From contig CAZYLT010000003.1 of the NCBI GenBank assembly GCA_964648855.1, positions 120,001 to 152,000 of the forward strand: a DNA stretch of 32,000 nucleotides. The letters are read 5' to 3'. Every line of letters begins with the position of its first letter. Position 1 is the stretch's first letter. The stretch comes from an uncultured archaeon. GTDB taxonomy: Archaea; Asgardarchaeota; Thorarchaeia; Thorarchaeales; Thorarchaeaceae. Position numbers and translations under genes: made by a program. Under the pieces are notes generated by a model, which made no database searches, was not told the DNA's origin, and worked only from the letters and a program-made list of their open reading frames with translations. This document shows positions 23,300-30,608 of this stretch, in pieces.

Positions 23300-25495
23300 G
23301 TGACTTCCTTCATCGAAGAGAAAGCCAGGTCTATCATCAAAAGAGCAGCTACAACGCTACTCGACGAAAGGAGGATTGAGAATCCCGACGCTCAAGACAT
23401 TGAGGTTATTCGTCTAGCATCACTAAACCACTCACTGGCATCATACCTCAACTACACAAACGACTACGTTGCGAATCTTCGTGAACCACCCTTCTCCAGA
23501 TTGAGTTATGCATCACAATTTATCGGGCTGGATTCCAATGAGGTTTTGACCAATACAAAACGTCTCCTAGAATTGATAGATGGTCCCTGTAATGAAGTCA
23601 AGGGACTTGCTCTATATTCTGTCCCCATCATGCTATCTCAGGTCCATTCACTATGTTCCTATCATCTCTCCCCAGTCGGTCGTCTCTTCCAGAAAAACCT
23701 CGGGGCTTTCTATACTCCAGAAGGAATTACCCGCTACATGCTCGAATCAATACTTACTGGTAATGGAGTGCAGCAAGACCGAAGAACTGATGAGCATGAT
23801 TTCAATGACAGCATACCATATGTCTTGGATCCTGCGTGTGGCACTGGCGCTTTTCTGGTTGCAGCCTTCAAAATTCTTTCAGACACCTATTTACGTGACG
23901 ATAACCCATCAAGAACGGGGAATTCGACAAAGCTACTGCAAGGACTAAGCGAGCATCTTTATGGAGTGGACCTCGATGCAGGCTCGTTGGGAATAGCAGA
24001 TATATCCCTCCGTCTCTTGGCAGGCGAAAACAAGATCCCAATGAAAGTTAGTCAACTGGGAGTGACCTTGAAACAGGGTAATGCTCTCATATCACCAACA
24101 GATAAGAACTCAGCCAAGGCGTTAGCAAACTACTTCGAAGATCCGAGTTCCGAGTTGCCGTTTGATTGGCAGGGCGAATTTCCGGAGGTATTCTCAGGTG
24201 GTTCACCTGGTTTCGACGTTGTTGTCGCCAATCCACCATATGAGCGGCTGAAGCCAAACAAAACAGAATTCGGACGTCATCTGGACAAGGAACTGGCCAA
24301 GAAGCACCAATCACTGAGCTTTGCTAACGATGCGCAGAGGATCAAGGAGAAGATTGCGTACTTCCGAAAATCGGGAGATTATGAGTTTGCAAATGTCTAT
24401 TCAATGGATACCTATCGACTATTCATCGAACGGTCGCTTGAACTGTTAAAAGACAGAGGCAAATTCGGATTCATTGTCCCATCTACACTTGCAGGCGACC
24501 TAGCTTCAGAGAAAATCAGAAGATATCTATTGACAGAAAATAGCGTGCTTAGTCTAGACTTCTTTGAAGAGACTGCAGAGATATTCCCGAATGTAAGTCA
24601 GGCGTTATGCATCTTAGTGGGTCACAAGAACGGTCATACTTCAGAAATCAATCTTCGAATCGATTTGAGTTCCAGTGATCAGCTAGCTTCTAGTCCTAGT
24701 TACAACATCGATGTAGATGCTATGACAAGGATTGTTGGGTCCTCTCTCGTAATAGCAAGAGTAGAATCATTTGGGTGGGAAATCCTGCAGCAAATGCATC
24801 TCCACCGATCTGTGGGTGAATTGGATTGGATTCTGAATCATCGTGGAGAGCTTGACTTGACGCTGGATAAGGAGTATATTTCGGAAGAGGAGATAGGTCC
24901 GCGTTTGTTGAAGGGTTCTAACATTGATAGATATGTATTAAGAAATCCACAGTCCTCGCACTCATCGAAGTATGTTGACCTGAAAAACTTCAGGGAATCG
25001 AAGATAAATTCCATCAGGCTTGACCATATTGACTCAGATAGAATTGTCTGTCAACAGATAAACAATCAGCACCAGAAGTGGCGTTTGAAATTCGCCAAGG
25101 TGAATGGGGGATTTGTGTTGGCCAACTCCTGCAATTATCTCACCGTGACAGTCCAGGAATCTCAAGACCTTCTCCTGAACTATCTGCTCGGCCTGATGAA
25201 CTCCGAGCTCATGAACTGGAGATTCTCTGTTACGAGCTATAACAACCATGTATCGAATAGAGAGCTTGATACCCTTCCAATCCCAAATCCGATGGGCTCG
25301 AACAGACAAGATGAAACCATCAAGCAAATCGCAGATTTGGCGGGTATAATAGGTCATAATAGTCAAGAGTATGTCCCCCGAATTGAGGGGCTGGTCTTCA
25401 GACTATTCGATATTCGTAAATCATCGGCTTTCAAGCTGTTGGATTCTAGAGGACTGACTAAGCAGCAGATTCGCAGTATTCTCAGTCATATGTAG
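23300..25495 (+). CDS. N6-adenine DNA methyltransferase (gamma class), Alw26I/Eco31I/Esp3I-like
   Basis: GAFYTP, VLDPACGTGAFL (motif I), YGVDLD, VANPPY (motif IV), FIERSLELLK..G.FGFIVP, C-terminal TRD containing GELDLT. Confidence 0.88.
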   Translation: MTSFIEEKARSIIKRAATTLLDERRIENPDAQDIEVIRLASLNHSLASYLNYTNDYVANLREPPFSRLSYASQFIGLDSNEVLTNTKRLLELIDGPCNEVKGLALYSVPIMLSQVHSLCSYHLSPVGRLFQKNLGAFYTPEGITRYMLESILTGNGVQQDRRTDEHDFNDSIPYVLDPACGTGAFLVAAFKILSDTYLRDDNPSRTGNSTKLLQGLSEHLYGVDLDAGSLGIADISLRLLAGENKIPMKVSQLGVTLKQGNALISPTDKNSAKALANYFEDPSSELPFDWQGEFPEVFSGGSPGFDVVVANPPYERLKPNKTEFGRHLDKELAKKHQSLSFANDAQRIKEKIAYFRKSGDYEFANVYSMDTYRLFIERSLELLKDRGKFGFIVPSTLAGDLASEKIRRYLLTENSVLSLDFFEETAEIFPNVSQALCILVGHKNGHTSEINLRIDLSSSDQLASSPSYNIDVDAMTRIVGSSLVIARVESFGWEILQQMHLHRSVGELDWILNHRGELDLTLDKEYISEEEIGPRLLKGSNIDRYVLRNPQSSHSSKYVDLKNFRESKINSIRLDHIDSDRIVCQQINNQHQKWRLKFAKVNGGFVLANSCNYLTVTVQESQDLLLNYLLGLMNSELMNWRFSVTSYNNHVSNRELDTLPIPNPMGSNRQDETIKQIADLAGIIGHNSQEYVPRIEGLVFRLFDIRKSSAFKLLDSRGLTKQQIRSILSHM

Positions 25496-25551
25496 TTGCC
25501 TTCGTATCTTCATCATCGTAATGCTTTCAAGTCACCGATGTTCAGAAAGCA

Positions 25552-26793
25552 TTGGTCATTATGGTTGAGGCAGAGGCTAGTGGAGAATGTGAGGCAAGTG
25601 AAGCTCATATTATCTTCAATCATGTCACAGCAAAACTCAGTGACCTAGACCTGGAGATGGTAAGCTCTGTAATGCCTGGAGGAAACTGGACGGATATTCC
25701 TCTGAAAACTGCGAAAAAATCGAAACGACTTATGCAGATTAGGAAATCTGGAGGTCGGACAACATATTATGGCAGACTTCGACCTGATTTGCCAAGTTAC
25801 ACCATCAATACATACTTCAATAGGCCGGGAAATGGGACATTCATACATCCGGAAAGGGACCGACTCATTTCCATCAGGGAAGCAGCTCGACTTCAATCAT
25901 TCTCAGATGACTTCAGGTTCTATGGCAGTCTTAGTTCGCAATACAAACAGATAGGAAACGCTGTTCCTCCACTGTTGGCTAGGGCAATAGGAAACATGAT
26001 TCCCGTTTCTCGGACAATTGACCTGTTCTGTGGTGCTGGCGGAATGTCAAGTGGTCTAAATCAAGCTGGTCACAATGTAATCGCAGCTGTGGATGTGAAC
26101 GACCATATGCTTGAAACATATGGTGAGAATCACGTTCAAGCCAAATCTATACAATCTGACTTGTCAAAGGAGAATGATACTGGAGAAACAGTTCTGTCCA
26201 TTGAAGACTCTCTACAAGGAAAGACACTTGGCCTGCTGGCTGCTGGACCGCCCTGTCAGGGATTTTCAACAGCAGGCAAAAGACAAGACAATGACCCACG
26301 CAATTCTTTGCTTTTTACAGCATTGAAGATAGCAGACGCCCTCCGTCCTGAATATGTCTTGATTGAAAATGTTCTCGGACTAAAATGGATGAATGGCGGA
26401 GAAATTCTAGACTCATTTATGAAGGATTTAGAAACACTTGCCTATACTGCATCTTGGCATAAATTGTTCGCAGAACAATATGGTGTTCCTCAGCGTCGCC
26501 GAAGGATTTTCATTCTTGGCGCTAGGGAGGGAAATGAATTCAATCCACCTAAGCCAATATTTTCATGTGTTACAACAGGTCGGACACGAGAAGATATTCG
26601 TTTCAAGGATAACCACTTGGTGCAACCCGTATCTGTTAATGAAGCCATAGGTGACATGCCTGAAGTGTGCAAAGATGCGAGATGTCAGGAATATCAGCTC
26701 AATAGCACGAAAAGCAATAGTATGTATCAAGAGCTCATGCGAAAAGAAATATCTTATGAGAAATTTATTGAGGGCAGGTCGAAGAAAGCTTGA
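25552..26793 (+). CDS. C5-cytosine DNA methyltransferase with circularly permuted motif order
   Basis: TRD, motif IX (RLISIREAARLQSF) and motif X (YKQIGNAVPP) precede motif I (IDLFCGAGG), IV (GPPCQGFS), VI (ENV) and VIII (QRRRRIF). Start is TTG 25552 or ATG 25561. Confidence 0.92.
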   Translation: MVIMVEAEASGECEASEAHIIFNHVTAKLSDLDLEMVSSVMPGGNWTDIPLKTAKKSKRLMQIRKSGGRTTYYGRLRPDLPSYTINTYFNRPGNGTFIHPERDRLISIREAARLQSFSDDFRFYGSLSSQYKQIGNAVPPLLARAIGNMIPVSRTIDLFCGAGGMSSGLNQAGHNVIAAVDVNDHMLETYGENHVQAKSIQSDLSKENDTGETVLSIEDSLQGKTLGLLAAGPPCQGFSTAGKRQDNDPRNSLLFTALKIADALRPEYVLIENVLGLKWMNGGEILDSFMKDLETLAYTASWHKLFAEQYGVPQRRRRIFILGAREGNEFNPPKPIFSCVTTGRTREDIRFKDNHLVQPVSVNEAIGDMPEVCKDARCQEYQLNSTKSNSMYQELMRKEISYEKFIEGRSKKA

Positions 26794-26847
26794 ATTACTA
26801 TTCCAAGAGATTCATAACACCTCTTGAAGAACCCAGGAGCTAAATCG

Positions 26848-28560
26848 GTGATCAGCGGTGCTGTCCTGTATGACCTTGCAGGAGCAAAAGAATGGGCAAG
26901 AATCCAGTTCACTAAAGAAGACTTCCCAGATAAAGTGCCAGAAGAAGTTATCTCACAATTCTTTGATTTAATATTGCACGATGATATGGAGAGCTGCGTG
27001 ACAATCCGAGTGTCAGGTATTTCATTTTGTTTGGCACGAGTTGACGAGAAGACTTTGCTCCTCACATATTCGTTTGACAAGGAAACCGGAGCTGATGATG
27101 TAGATAGAACAGTCAAATTACGGGACCATCTGGCTGACCTTCTTATGGCTGAGTCTCCTAGAGATGCTAGCAAGAGGTGGCATAGGATAGCTGGCAAGGT
27201 TCTTCGGAAAAACATACACATCCGGTTTGCAGTCCCATCTACTCTCTTGAACAGCTCGAAACCTGGACTTGGAGTTCAGCGAGTTCTGCAAACCTGTGGG
27301 ACTGGGACCAAGGCACAAGAGGGTCTGATTGTAGGCCCCTTCGAAATATCTTCAACACTCAGTCAAATAACCGAATTGGCTGAGGACGGTTCTTATCTCA
27401 ATTCTCCAACTGATGACGTGATCCTTACGATTGTCAGAAGAGATGTTTTCACCAATGCGATGATTGAGGCGCTTGAGGAAATTAAGGAAAACGTTCCGAT
27501 TCCAATATTGATAGTTCCTGCATCAGATGAAGATTTGGAATTTACACGTAGTTTGGAGAGTCGAGGCTTCAGGCTGTGCGACTCCATTACAGACGACCCA
27601 GTTGATTTGACGCTTGCCATTCTAGCGATGATGGGCGAGTCGTATATGCAACCTGAACTTGCTCGAAAGAAATGGGTCATCAGCGAACCTCAAGAACCTA
27701 TAGAAGAATCGAAGTCCGACGAAGAGAAGGAAGAGTTTGGTCACAAGGCATTTTTCGTTGTTAGCAGACAATCTGGTGAGGCTGTTTTTAGCTACTATTA
27801 CGATGTTAGCAGCGAGTTTCTTGAACGCTCACCTAATGTCATTGCTGCCATAACTATGTTTGAATTTGATACAAAAGAGGACAGCAGAACATCAGTATTT
27901 CGAACAGGAGAGCTCGTATATGCCGTCATCGAACACGAAGACCTCATTTTCGCTTTGATAACCGGACAGCATAAAGGCATAGATGACTTGCGTCGCCGAT
28001 TCTCGTTTCTTCCTGAACTCTGGACGGAGGGGGACCCTGAAAACCTCCGTTGTGACAGCCAGCCGTATCACTCACCACCCTTCGCCTTGAAGCTTCTTGC
28101 AACGCTGCCCTCGGAGAAGCTACCTATGCGATACTACCCGATTAGAAAGAAGGAGCCAGACTGGGACGAATTTCGCTATCCGGAGGTAAGGGACCTTTTG
28201 AAAGCTGTGTGGCAAGCGATAGAGCAGCCAATCATTGTGGAACGGTTTGCCGCCAGCGAGGGTCCGAACATGACTCTGGGTGCTATTCATCTTCTCCGCA
28301 TTCTGGGGGCCATTGACTTTGGAGTGAAGATTTCCCTTGACGACAAGCCAATCTTTGTGGACGAATTGAGTGATGATACAAAGCGAGTCTACTCACATAT
28401 TGACCAAATCAGAAAACATACGAATGGAAACAGAACCATCAAGACAATTGGCGAGGCTGTTGGAATAGCTCCTACTGTGCTTCTCCGAGTGTTCCAAGAC
28501 CTGCATCGACGAGGATTGGTTCATTTCAGAAATGCTGATATGTCATCAGAAAACTCTTAG
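26848..28560 (+). CDS. Putative longin - pseudo-GTPase - longin - tandem winged-helix protein
   Basis: Segment-by-segment similarity by eye to the downstream GTPase. GTG 26848 after AGGAG gives MISGAVLYD, paralleling MIHNVLLIK (track start 26824). The CDS is well supported; the domain calls are inferred. Confidence 0.7.
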   Translation: MISGAVLYDLAGAKEWARIQFTKEDFPDKVPEEVISQFFDLILHDDMESCVTIRVSGISFCLARVDEKTLLLTYSFDKETGADDVDRTVKLRDHLADLLMAESPRDASKRWHRIAGKVLRKNIHIRFAVPSTLLNSSKPGLGVQRVLQTCGTGTKAQEGLIVGPFEISSTLSQITELAEDGSYLNSPTDDVILTIVRRDVFTNAMIEALEEIKENVPIPILIVPASDEDLEFTRSLESRGFRLCDSITDDPVDLTLAILAMMGESYMQPELARKKWVISEPQEPIEESKSDEEKEEFGHKAFFVVSRQSGEAVFSYYYDVSSEFLERSPNVIAAITMFEFDTKEDSRTSVFRTGELVYAVIEHEDLIFALITGQHKGIDDLRRRFSFLPELWTEGDPENLRCDSQPYHSPPFALKLLATLPSEKLPMRYYPIRKKEPDWDEFRYPEVRDLLKAVWQAIEQPIIVERFAASEGPNMTLGAIHLLRILGAIDFGVKISLDDKPIFVDELSDDTKRVYSHIDQIRKHTNGNRTIKTIGEAVGIAPTVLLRVFQDLHRRGLVHFRNADMSSENS

Positions 28561-28640: not shown

Positions 28641-30608
28641 ATGATACACAACGTCCTCCTCATCAAAAAGAGAACAGGGGACGTTGTCGTGAGTGCTCGC
28701 TTCTGGAAGGTTGATTTCGAAGAAGAGCACATCCAAGACTTCTTGATTGGACGGCAAGAGATGCAGGAGACAGAGGGCCTGGCCGAAGATACCCCTGTCT
28801 ATGTGGATGAACACAAGGTCTTCCATGGCGAGGTAGGGGGAGACTTCTTGCTCATCTTTGCAACGGATGGGAGAGATGAGGACCGTACCATCCAGCATAA
28901 GATACGAGAGGGGTCCGCGCGTATTGAAACCGCACTCCGAGGCAATACGCTGGGCTACATAAAAGACAATCTTGAGGAGCTTCTCGGTGAACTCATCTTC
29001 ACCCGCTTCAAGATTTCCTTTGTGGGCTCTGGCGGTGTGGGCAAGTCGACATTGTTGCGCCTTCTCTTCGGTAGAGAACCCGCCCCGGGCGGTTATGTTC
29101 CTACAATAAATGTGGCTGTGGACAGCAGCGAAACTATTCAGTTTGGCACTTTCCTCGTTACAATATGGGACTTTGCCGGGCAGGCCGTTTTTCAGGACCT
29201 CTGGAGCTTTTATTTTCAAGGCACAGACGTGATTTTCCTCATCACGGACAGCAGTTTCCGAAACGTAATGCAGACAAAGTCACTGATGCGGAATATTAAG
29301 AAGGAGGCTCCGGCTGTCCCCTTGTTCATTGTTGCGAACAAACAGGACCTTCCTGAATCGATGGCAGGCGACAAGATTCAGCGTCTATTGGGAGCTCCCA
29401 CATTCTCAATGGTGGCCACGGATAAGACTCGTCGTGAAGAGTTCATCCGATTCATGCTAGAGGTTGCCGCGAAGACTGTTGGCGTCCAGTTGCCAAACCG
29501 TCCAATCAGTGAAATGATAACGGTTCGACGAAAGACTGAGGAAATTGACCGCCCTGAACTACAGAGAGATCGGGATATCACAGAGTCAGGGTTCGAAGAG
29601 GTTCCTCTAGAGGGTGAGGAGGAGGATGCTAAGCTCCCGATTGATACGTCACACGCAGCAGTCGCTGCCATGGCTGAAGATAAAGGAGCGGCAGAAGGGG
29701 ACGGGATAGAGGCTGATGTAGCGGCTCAAGTTCCCGCAACCACAAAAATCCTCAATCTCATTCTGATGCTTAATAATAAAGGTAACTTCCAGAATGCCTA
29801 TCATTTGGATTACGCAGAGGAGGCTGTCGATACGACGACTATTGCATCTCTCATCTCTGCTCTCGACTCATTTGGAGGAATCGATGCAGTACCAGAGGGT
29901 CAAGTCAATCGAACAGACGCTTTGGAGACTATCGAGCACGAAGGAAATCTTGTGATGGTTGAGAAGTCGCGACATTTCGTCATGGCGTTGATTGCGACCA
30001 ATGACAACAAGGAAGTAGAACAGCGAAAGAAGATGTCCGCCTTGCTAGTAGAGCTGGAGCAGGAATTCGAAGACATGTGGGACGACTGGGAAAAGAGTGA
30101 AGTGGAACCGAAGGAGTTTGAAACCTCAATCTTCACAACCCTTGAGGAGTTCCCTCTGATGCCGGTGCATCTTGATTATATTGTGCGAGTAAGAGAAGCT
30201 GGAAGACCCTTACCATTTCAAAATCGCGATATGGGACGAGCAATTGTTCAGGTACAAAGTGAGATTGATGGTTCTGAATCAGTGGGCAATCTTGTTAGAT
30301 CTCTAGACCTTCCACGGGAAAAAGTGATAGGTTCTCTTCAGATTCTCAATAAATTCGGTTGGGTTGACTTCCAAGTGGAGATTGGTCCAACGAGTCACCT
30401 GAAGAGGAGCGGAAACGTAGATTCCGATATTGTCAAAATCTATGGACCGGTAGTTTTGGAATTTGTTGAACTCTGCGATGGGAACAAACAACTTGAGGAA
30501 ATTGTGAAAGAAATCAACTCCAAGGGTAAGAAACGAGCAACTGTACCTTCTATGGGTTTTGTTGCCACCAAACTGGTACTCAAGGGCGTCCTTGAAGTTG
30601 TTGCGTAG
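28641..30608 (+). CDS. Arf/Rab-like small GTPase fused to longin-like domains and C-terminal winged helices (Asgard eukaryotic signature protein)
   Basis: G1 GSGGVGKS, G2 YVPT, G3 WDFAGQ, G4 NKQD. The N-terminal MIHNVLLIKKRTGDVVVSARF and internal ILNLILMLNNKG...IASLISALDSF are longin-like. Confidence 0.88.
   Translation: MIHNVLLIKKRTGDVVVSARFWKVDFEEEHIQDFLIGRQEMQETEGLAEDTPVYVDEHKVFHGEVGGDFLLIFATDGRDEDRTIQHKIREGSARIETALRGNTLGYIKDNLEELLGELIFTRFKISFVGSGGVGKSTLLRLLFGREPAPGGYVPTINVAVDSSETIQFGTFLVTIWDFAGQAVFQDLWSFYFQGTDVIFLITDSSFRNVMQTKSLMRNIKKEAPAVPLFIVANKQDLPESMAGDKIQRLLGAPTFSMVATDKTRREEFIRFMLEVAAKTVGVQLPNRPISEMITVRRKTEEIDRPELQRDRDITESGFEEVPLEGEEEDAKLPIDTSHAAVAAMAEDKGAAEGDGIEADVAAQVPATTKILNLILMLNNKGNFQNAYHLDYAEEAVDTTTIASLISALDSFGGIDAVPEGQVNRTDALETIEHEGNLVMVEKSRHFVMALIATNDNKEVEQRKKMSALLVELEQEFEDMWDDWEKSEVEPKEFETSIFTTLEEFPLMPVHLDYIVRVREAGRPLPFQNRDMGRAIVQVQSEIDGSESVGNLVRSLDLPREKVIGSLQILNKFGWVDFQVEIGPTSHLKRSGNVDSDIVKIYGPVVLEFVELCDGNKQLEEIVKEINSKGKKRATVPSMGFVATKLVLKGVLEVVA

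Follow-up and report, generated by a model that had tools for sequence, protein, structure and literature searches.

A motif-less G domain beside a working longin-GTPase gene in Thorarchaeota: a probable archaeal pseudoGTPase

Can a protein in which none of the classical G motifs is recognizable still carry a G domain and, if so, what might such a domain be doing next to a working GTPase? This question is raised by a gene in a 32,000 nucleotide (nt) stretch of DNA from an uncultured archaeon of the family Thorarchaeaceae (GenBank assembly GCA_964648855.1, contig CAZYLT010000003.1, positions 120,001 to 152,000), the whole of which is referred to here as the window. The gene lies at positions 26848–28560 on the forward strand, and its product of 570 amino acids (aa) is labelled PSG in this work. 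A sequence-only reading of the window had proposed that the interval 27200–27640, corresponding to PSG residues 118–265, encodes a pseudoGTPase domain; the limits set here are 27208–27642 (residues 121–265). Our analyses indicate that PSG probably carries a G domain stripped of its catalytic and nucleotide-binding motifs, the most likely role of the protein being that of a nucleotide-free partner of the GTPase encoded directly downstream. The parts of the two proteins on which the argument depends are the following.

26848–28560, + strand: PSG gene, encoding longin, pseudoG, longin-like and two winged-helix (wH) domains, 570 aa (from the list of open reading frames (ORFs), with a GTG start at 26848)
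26848–27150, + strand: LD1, N-terminal longin domain, residues 1–101, element order ββαβββα (AF2 model, VIA-align, hhalign)
27208–27642, + strand: predicted pseudoGTPase (pseudoG) domain, residues 121–265, without G1, G3 or G4 (AF2 model, family profiles)
27742–27999, + strand: LD2, predicted second longin/roadblock-like domain, residues 299–384, element order ββαβββα (AF2, low confidence)
28078–28530, + strand: tandem wH domains, residues 411–561 (AF2 elements, hhalign)
28641–30608, + strand: downstream paralogue, encoding longin, working Arf/Rag-like GTPase, acidic linker, longin-like and two wH domains, 655 aa (Pfam, motifs)
29001–29498, + strand: active G domain of this neighbour, residues 121–286, homologue of the pseudoG domain (Pfam, hhalign)

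The loss of the G motifs is common to the entire PSG family. The signature GxxxxGK[ST] is present nowhere in any of the 37 full-length members (0/37), [NT]KxD is likewise missing from the β5 position (0/37), no DxxG is conserved after β3 (columns 168–175 of the 37-member alignment hold no conserved D or G), and no Mg-binding Thr is conserved in the family. The absence of GxxxxGKS, DxxG and NKxD from this protein had been noted from the window alone, with conservation of the loss in orthologues proposed as a check; both are borne out, the loss extending to 37/37 members, and 1.84 billion representatives, searched exhaustively with the profile, yielded only 46 proteins, all of them members or fragments of the PSG family and none with intact motifs. 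Three short elements of the gene lie, or are predicted to lie, at the sites where the motifs would be expected.

27229–27267, + strand: lengthened loop with few glycines where the P-loop would be (AVPSTLLNSSKPG; model, family alignment)
27514–27528, + strand: VPASD, the family motif V-P-[GAS]-S-D after β5, at the NKxD (G4) site (paired by hhalign with ANKQD of the neighbour)
27574–27585, + strand: LCDS, conserved L-C-D-S after β6 (conservation; strand β6 in the model)

The loop that follows β1 exceeds a P-loop in length, contains few glycines and many acidic residues, and causes hhalign to open a 5-residue gap in the P-loop of the neighbour. LCDS is tentatively placed at the SAK (G5) site by the order of elements in the model. 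Judged by its sequence, PSG thus lacks the motifs G1, G3 and G4 by which a functional small GTPase is recognized.

The neighbouring gene, in contrast, encodes a protein in which GSGGVGKS, WDFAGQ and NKQD are all intact. Its residues 121–254 match the Pfam family Arf (1.3e-17), in addition to Roc, Ras and Gtr1_RagA (the last at 22.7 bits, with a cut-off of 22), and its G domain shows a mean pairwise identity of 93% across 27 close orthologues picked from the best-scoring matches. Plain BLASTP of PSG against this neighbour was not significant, and the likeness between them is therefore visible at the profile level alone. When family profiles built from 37 PSG and 27 GTPase sequences were compared by hhalign, the whole proteins matched with a probability of 98.7% (E 3.3e-16) over 555 collinear columns; by domain, LD1 matched at 65% (E 6e-5), the middle domain at 72–84% and the wH region at 96.9% (E 1.4e-10). 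On its own, the middle domain matches the G domain of the neighbour at 84.4% (E 7.1e-6) over 88 columns, from β2 to α4, and, with the register unchanged, an alignment of 23 G domains from its own genome at 49.7% (E 1.7e-4); controls with reversed sequences gave 0.3–0.7%. A hidden Markov model of the middle domain, searched against 5097 ORFs of at least 100 aa from the genome, had the neighbour's G domain as its top non-self match (E 0.002, same register). In HMMER searches, positions 1–230 of the PSG profile align onto LD1 and the G domain of working GTPases, viz. the neighbour, a paralogue in the same genome (C12), a 605 aa protein of genome G236 that carries GEGGTGKT, WDFAGQ and NKQD, and the orthologue in genome G112 (domain E 1.5e-10).

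The segment pairs quoted in the sequence-only reading (KNIHIRFAV/RFKISFVG, IVGPFEI/QFGTFLV, SYLNSPTDDVILTIV/FYFQGTDVIFLIT and EEIKENVPIPILIVPASD/RNIKKEAPAVPLFIVANKQD) stand in the same register in the hhalign alignment of the family profiles. These comparisons show that the whole of PSG is a collinear paralogue of the neighbouring GTPase and place its middle domain, by descent, in the Ras-like/TRAFAC superfamily of small GTPases, and profile homology to a working G domain, combined with the loss of motifs, upholds the proposal of a pseudoGTPase. A tandem duplication of the neighbouring longin-GTPase-longin-wH-wH gene would be the most likely origin of PSG. Following this duplication, the P-loop would have been extended and stripped of glycines, other sequences would have taken the place of switch II and NKxD, and a new conserved surface, formed by V-P-G-S-D, L-E-x-x-R-x-x-E and L-C-D-S, would have arisen on the β5-α4-β6-α5 side. 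The pseudoG domain would no longer bind GTP and would serve as a structural or allosteric module, in which the conserved β5–α5 surface might form an interface or, alternatively, a newly evolved pocket.

Several results weigh against this reading, and they are set out here beside the alternatives on which they bear. The first of them concern the fold. Modelled alone from 36 sequences (pLDDT 87.9, pTM 0.83), the middle domain consists of six strands and five helices that follow one another as β1-α1-β2/β3 hairpin-α2-β4-α3-β5-α4-β6-α5, which is the Ras order, and the turn between β2 and β3 consists of two residues (G163-P164) that are invariant or nearly so. Foldseek searches with this model returned EF-Tu, Rab2A, MglA and Rac mixed with receivers (E ~5e-4 to 3e-3, TM ~0.5). 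By VIA-align, CheY-type receivers and the N-domains of CpaE/TadZ came first, at Z 10.2–10.6 (root mean square deviation (rmsd) 2.9–3.3, 113–120 residues aligned), followed by Rheb (Z 10.1, 133 aligned), Rab28 (Z 9.8, 139 aligned), SelB (Z 9.8, 137 aligned) and the pG1 domain of p190RhoGAP (5u4u; Z 9.8, rmsd 3.6, 138/153 residues), and rows this close count as tied under the VIA-align rule. The fold search with the model therefore leaves a stripped G fold and a CheY/flavodoxin-like sandwich unseparated, the receivers being ahead by less than one Z unit. Similarly, a search of the ESM Atlas by shape returned, after members of the protein's own family, only generic α/β sandwiches (a search by features gave no usable match), and the sole match in a sequence-profile search of the PDB was a de novo designed Rossmann 2x2 fold protein (E 2.8e-4).

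These matches are what would be expected if the middle domain were a receiver- or flavodoxin-like sandwich unrelated to GTPases, its likeness to them arising from α/β periodicity; the Atlas neighbours, viz. receivers, B12-binding domains and halves of GT-B folds, agree with this. The core of a G domain, β3-β1-β4-β5-β6, superposes on the receiver sheet 2-1-3-4-5, and a tie between receivers and GTPases is thus to be expected. The two possibilities are distinguished by other evidence. An alignment of 11 receiver domains from the same genome matches the middle domain at only 8.2% and out of register, compared with 84% in register for the neighbour's G domain, and the domains that flank it in PSG are collinear paralogues of those in the neighbour. 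The model also has a sixth strand, in the hairpin, which receivers lack, and GTPase alignments cover 10–25 more residues (GTPase and pseudoGTPase chains span 129–145 of the 153 model residues at Z 9.5–10.1). Lastly, a Pfam search of 36 middle domains gave nothing meaningful, and no member matched Response_reg (PF00072) even at E up to 10. An unrelated sandwich is on these grounds highly improbable, and the assignment of the middle domain to the G fold rests on homology and on the order of elements, not on the ranking of folds. The structure prediction that the sequence-only reading had called for thus yielded the Ras order with its β2-β3 hairpin, as anticipated, and a ranking of folds that ties with CheY-like receivers.

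A second set of observations concerns the residues that the family has kept. At the N-terminus of α1, K138 occupies the position of the Walker-A Lys. Among orthologues, the start of this helix reads [KR] in 24/37, then [ST] in 30/37 and then G in 21/37, the two columns that precede [KR] being mostly E/D and N/D, and this [KR]-[ST]-G looks like a vestige of Walker-A. The statement that all G motifs are erased accordingly holds for the window's own protein, which reads S-S-K-P-G at this site, and is too strong for most orthologues, in which K-[ST] persists. Elsewhere in the domain, ten columns are at least 90% conserved, all of them within β5–α5 apart from the G163-P164 hairpin turn. VPASD (P224 in 36/37, S226 in 33/37 and D227 in 31/37), the α4 residues L230, E231, R234 and E237 that lie between VPASD and LCDS, LCDS itself (L243 in 33/37, D245 in 34/37) and P251 are each conserved in 31–36 of the 37 members. 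The vestige of Walker-A and the conserved Asp after β5 leave room, as far as the alignment indicates, for the binding of some ligand.

The middle domain might, in that case, still have a non-canonical pocket (K-[ST], S-D/C-D-S) for a nucleotide or some other small molecule and act as a sensor. In addition to the basic and hydroxyl residues at the Walker-A Lys and Ser positions and the conservation of P224, S226, D227, D245, R234 and E237 (31–36 of 37), it is in favour of such a pocket that selection has maintained the domain. In comparison with a genome of the same genus (a single genome pair, with dS ~0.8–1.0), the ratio of nonsynonymous to synonymous substitution rates (dN/dS) is 0.19 for the pseudoG domain, 0.05–0.09 for the other domains of PSG and 0.023 for the neighbour's G domain, values that show purifying selection on the pseudoG domain, although in a relaxed form. 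The features that a nucleotide pocket would call for are, however, mostly missing: there is no glycine-rich loop, the loop that is present being longer than a P-loop, with the 5-residue hhalign gap; acidic or amide residues precede the Lys; neither DxxG nor a Mg-binding Thr is conserved; and the window's own protein has K-P in place of K-S. A protein interface would account for this conserved surface just as well. A ligand pocket is thus unlikely, and a domain that has given up nucleotide remains the probable interpretation.

The distribution of PSG and the organization of its locus bear on the identity of its partner. PSG occurs as one copy per genome in 67 of the 76 genomes of one GTDB family of Thorarchaeota; it was not found in 224 other genomes searched in the same phylum, and one genome of a sister family has a partial longin+wH relative only. 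The GTPase family is present in 74 of the same 76 genomes, and the sister-family genome also has a full-length GTPase. Across genomes, identity to the window's proteins is 33–36% for PSG and 61–80% for the GTPase, and PSG is a paralogue that evolves fast although selection maintains it. We examined 31 PSG loci from ~16 genera: the GTPase lies directly downstream of PSG and in the same orientation in 30/30 loci whose contig reaches downstream, the 31st ending inside PSG, and in the window the two genes are 80 nt apart. A C5 DNA methyltransferase (MTase) gene lies directly upstream of PSG in 29/29 loci whose contig reaches upstream; further upstream is an N6 MTase gene and, downstream of the GTPase on the other strand, a β-CASP gene. 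In the window the upstream genes are as follows.

23300–26793, + strand: N6-adenine MTase (731 aa, Eco57I/MmeI-type) and C5 DNA methylase (413 aa), directly upstream of PSG, also at loci L009 and L010, with gaps of ~55 nt

The order N6-MTase, C5-MTase, PSG, GTPase is kept in two distant genomes, and at a locus of the same genus (L037) the 3' end of the N6-MTase gene is visible at the edge. We saw no gene for a nuclease in this block. In three genomes (G112, G242 and G290) the GTPase and β-CASP genes are present and PSG and both MTase genes are missing at the locus, which is a further point against PSG as the dedicated partner of the GTPase. Because the GTPase persists without PSG in these genomes, it does not depend on the pairing, and the presence of PSG goes together with that of the methyltransferases. 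This pattern, the constant position of the C5-MTase gene, the conserved four-gene order and the tandem winged helices of PSG would all suit a protein that works with the two MTases, e.g. as a wH DNA-binding or regulatory subunit, its adjacency to the GTPase being a relic of duplication. The joint absence is explicable by single deletions of adjacent genes (two losses in the family and one outgroup), and the GTPase has the same pair of winged helices; likewise, no likeness to known restriction-modification or defence proteins was seen, although none was tested for. We consider a partnership with the MTases improbable, and the GTPase remains the more probable partner of PSG.

How the two proteins might act together can be stated in more tentative terms. 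PSG and the GTPase would most likely form a pseudo-symmetric heterodimer through their longin-type domains, in the manner of the Rag A/C, Nprl2/Nprl3 and Mon1/Ccz1 pairs, and the resulting complex would contain one switching and one fixed G module. That this is an asymmetric GTPase/pseudoGTPase heterodimer of longin, G and NPRL2-like wH modules, one half of it held fixed by the dead G domain, which would also adjust nucleotide cycling in the live half, is a possibility that we regard as somewhat doubtful. LD2, the expected dimerization module, shows when taken alone no significant hhalign similarity to LD2 of the neighbour, and this also counts against a partnership of the two chains. A complex predicted, with alignments of our own, from residues 1–480 of the GTPase and 1–400 of PSG gave ipSAE values of 0.59, 0.62 and 0.59 (best of 3 controls 0.00), the runs agreeing in at least 80% of contacts with a partner pLDDT of at least 71. 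The verdict of the tool was weak support, and the result is not counted either way: the pass mark was reached by 58/80 solved complexes and 2/110 mismatched pairs in calibration, a score of ≤0.60 belonged to just 7 of the 80 solved complexes and to both mismatches that passed, and likeness to solved Rag/longin dimers could inflate the score of this pair.

With regard to the remainder of PSG, an upstream TTG at 26824 would give a protein of 578 aa; the GTG start at 26848 is favoured, the 570 aa form agreeing with the database proteins and with the N-termini of orthologues (MIxxAxLxDL). The full-length AF2 model (17-sequence alignment, mean pLDDT 72.7) has five parts, with two short helices between LD1 and the pseudoG domain. 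LD1 matches ζ-COP by VIA-align (Z 13.8, rmsd 2.4, 113 aligned) and, further, AP2 μ2/σ2, sedlin, the VAMP7 longin domain, Fuzzy LD1 and MglB (Z 10.4), and the model indicates that the first domain of PSG is a true longin domain. When an arginine of the kind used by GTPase-activating proteins (GAPs) was looked for in LD1, a conservation of at least 90% was reached by only 1/101 columns, which holds a residue other than Arg; an arginine finger at R352, considered in LD1/LD2, was dropped, R352 being variable in a wider alignment. Conservation within PSG is highest in LD2 (mean pairwise identity 0.54; 20/86 columns at least 90% identical). Its motifs include GHQAFFVVD, SYYYD, TSVFRTG and RFSFLP, yet its pLDDT in the AF2 model is 33–58, and its folding may depend on a partner. 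The prediction that automated annotation would leave the gene hypothetical proved correct: a Pfam search of PSG gives no family, with weak helix-turn-helix hints from the wH region alone, and the homologues found by sequence search all come from Thorarchaeota and are all named hypothetical.

Some further observations concern related genes. The database call for the neighbouring GTPase (639 aa, from 28689) begins 16 codons late; the ATG at 28641 gives 655 aa and recovers the N-terminus MIHNVLLI... that is common to the GTPase orthologues. The window's own genome contains separate longin-G ORFs (C12, C5 and C1, 290–639 aa) and ORFs that the PSG profile matches with its C-terminal wH segment only (C9, C12 and C18, 285–443 aa). 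Since longin+GTPase and tandem-wH proteins exist separately, PSG and its neighbour look like fusions of two modules. In genome G236 (L040, 876–2693, − strand) a longin domain and an intact GTPase are followed by an extremely acidic, E/D/V-rich C-terminal tail of ~300 residues; this class of acidic-tail longin-GTPases is found in most genomes of the GTDB family, the GTPase profile covering positions 1–350 only. In genome G112 an ORF of 184 aa with an alternating hydrophobic-strand pattern lies between the GTPase orthologue and the β-CASP gene (L055, 6672–7226, + strand). It was considered as a stand-alone pseudoG domain and rejected, as profile comparison shows no likeness to domains of either the G or the pseudoG kind.

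The reach of these results is limited for now to one lineage and to what sequence and models reveal of PSG. Within that lineage, the likely parent, with its 93%-conserved G domain, and the dead copy stand side by side in ~70 genomes, which allows the stages by which the motifs were lost, and the new surface, to be read directly. The locus would provide a two-gene system for studying how longin, GTPase and wH modules were assembled in Asgard archaea, and it bears on the origin of the eukaryotic Rag, GATOR1 and longin-GEF/GAP (GEF, guanine nucleotide exchange factor) machineries. If the proposed heterodimer is real, Asgard archaea evolved "one live, one locked" G pairs and pseudoGTPases of their own, either separately from eukaryotes or ahead of them.

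Among known systems, class-i pseudoGTPase domains are nucleotide-free and eukaryotic, and include pG1/pG2 of p190RhoGAP and CENP-M. Eukaryotic examples are also given in PMC10211241, and the pseudoGTPase examples in a review of the field are all eukaryotic; a literature search on pseudoGTPases and archaea returned general reviews of pseudoenzymes and pseudokinases only, with no archaeal pseudoGTPase described. PSG resembles the class-i domains, which serve as protein-interaction modules, in having a G-type α/β domain without G1, G3 and G4 inside a larger protein, and its apparent G-domain ancestry and loss of motifs support its placement in this class, in which case its pseudoG domain would be nucleotide-free. 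It differs from pG1 of p190RhoGAP in being archaeal and of independent origin, in having an adjacent Arf/Rag-like gene as its likely parent, in the position of its pseudoG domain between two longin-type domains, in its unrelated sequence (12% identity), and in being known from sequence and models. PSG would thus be an archaeal counterpart of the eukaryotic pseudoGTPases, and with its neighbour an active/dead switch pair open to test.

NPRL2-like longin proteins and Rag-family GTPases with fused longin domains have been described from Asgard archaea (10.1101/2020.10.19.343400), as have the small GTPases of Thor/MK-D1 (PMC10933270). These longin-GTPase fusions come from the same phylum and use the same longin+G building block as PSG, and the window's own genome has 23 small-GTPase ORFs, in several of which the G domain begins near residue 120, as in a longin-G fusion. 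Unlike PSG, the fusions described are working GTPases, and a motif-less G-domain paralogue goes unmentioned ("pseudo" is absent from PMC10933270, and "inactivated" from 10.1101/2020.10.19.343400).

In Foldseek searches, the full-length model of PSG resembles chains of Fuzzy/Inturned, Nprl2/Nprl3, Mon1/Ccz1, BLOC-3 and the Rags (E 2e-5 to 1e-3), with Fuzzy-Inturned (9rs9_A) at E 2.4e-5, GATOR1 chains from KICSTOR/Rag entries at E 4e-5 to 3e-4, and Rag chains at E 1e-4 to 1e-3 (probability 0.98–1.0). In common with NPRL2/NPRL3 (GATOR1), Mon1-Ccz1, Fuzzy-Inturned and BLOC-3, PSG has an N-terminal longin domain, a middle domain and a C-terminal wH region, and longin proteins of the NPRL2/NPRL3 type form paralogous heterodimers that regulate small GTPases. 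The likeness of the PSG model to NPRL2/NPRL3 is at the level of architecture only (residues 1–564 match chains of GATOR1 complexes by VIA-align at Z 10.2–10.7, but with an rmsd of ~17): PSG has no Pfam NPR2/NPR3 match and no identified GAP arginine, its middle domain is probably derived from a G domain, and the GTPase that would be its client forms part of the sister chain instead of standing alone.

The Rag/Gtr proteins (RagA/B-RagC/D, Gtr1-Gtr2) and LokiRagO (8yl2), which is RagA-like and from Asgard archaea, share with PSG the arrangement of a G domain with a roadblock/longin-type domain after it, and with PSG and its neighbour two paralogous chains that are expected to pair. Both subunits of the Rags bind nucleotide, whereas PSG is motif-less and carries an additional longin domain at its N-terminus and two wH domains at its C-terminus, and its heterodimer is a putative one. 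Should that asymmetric heterodimer exist, it would be an archaeal, single-locus version of the logic of Rag/GATOR1.

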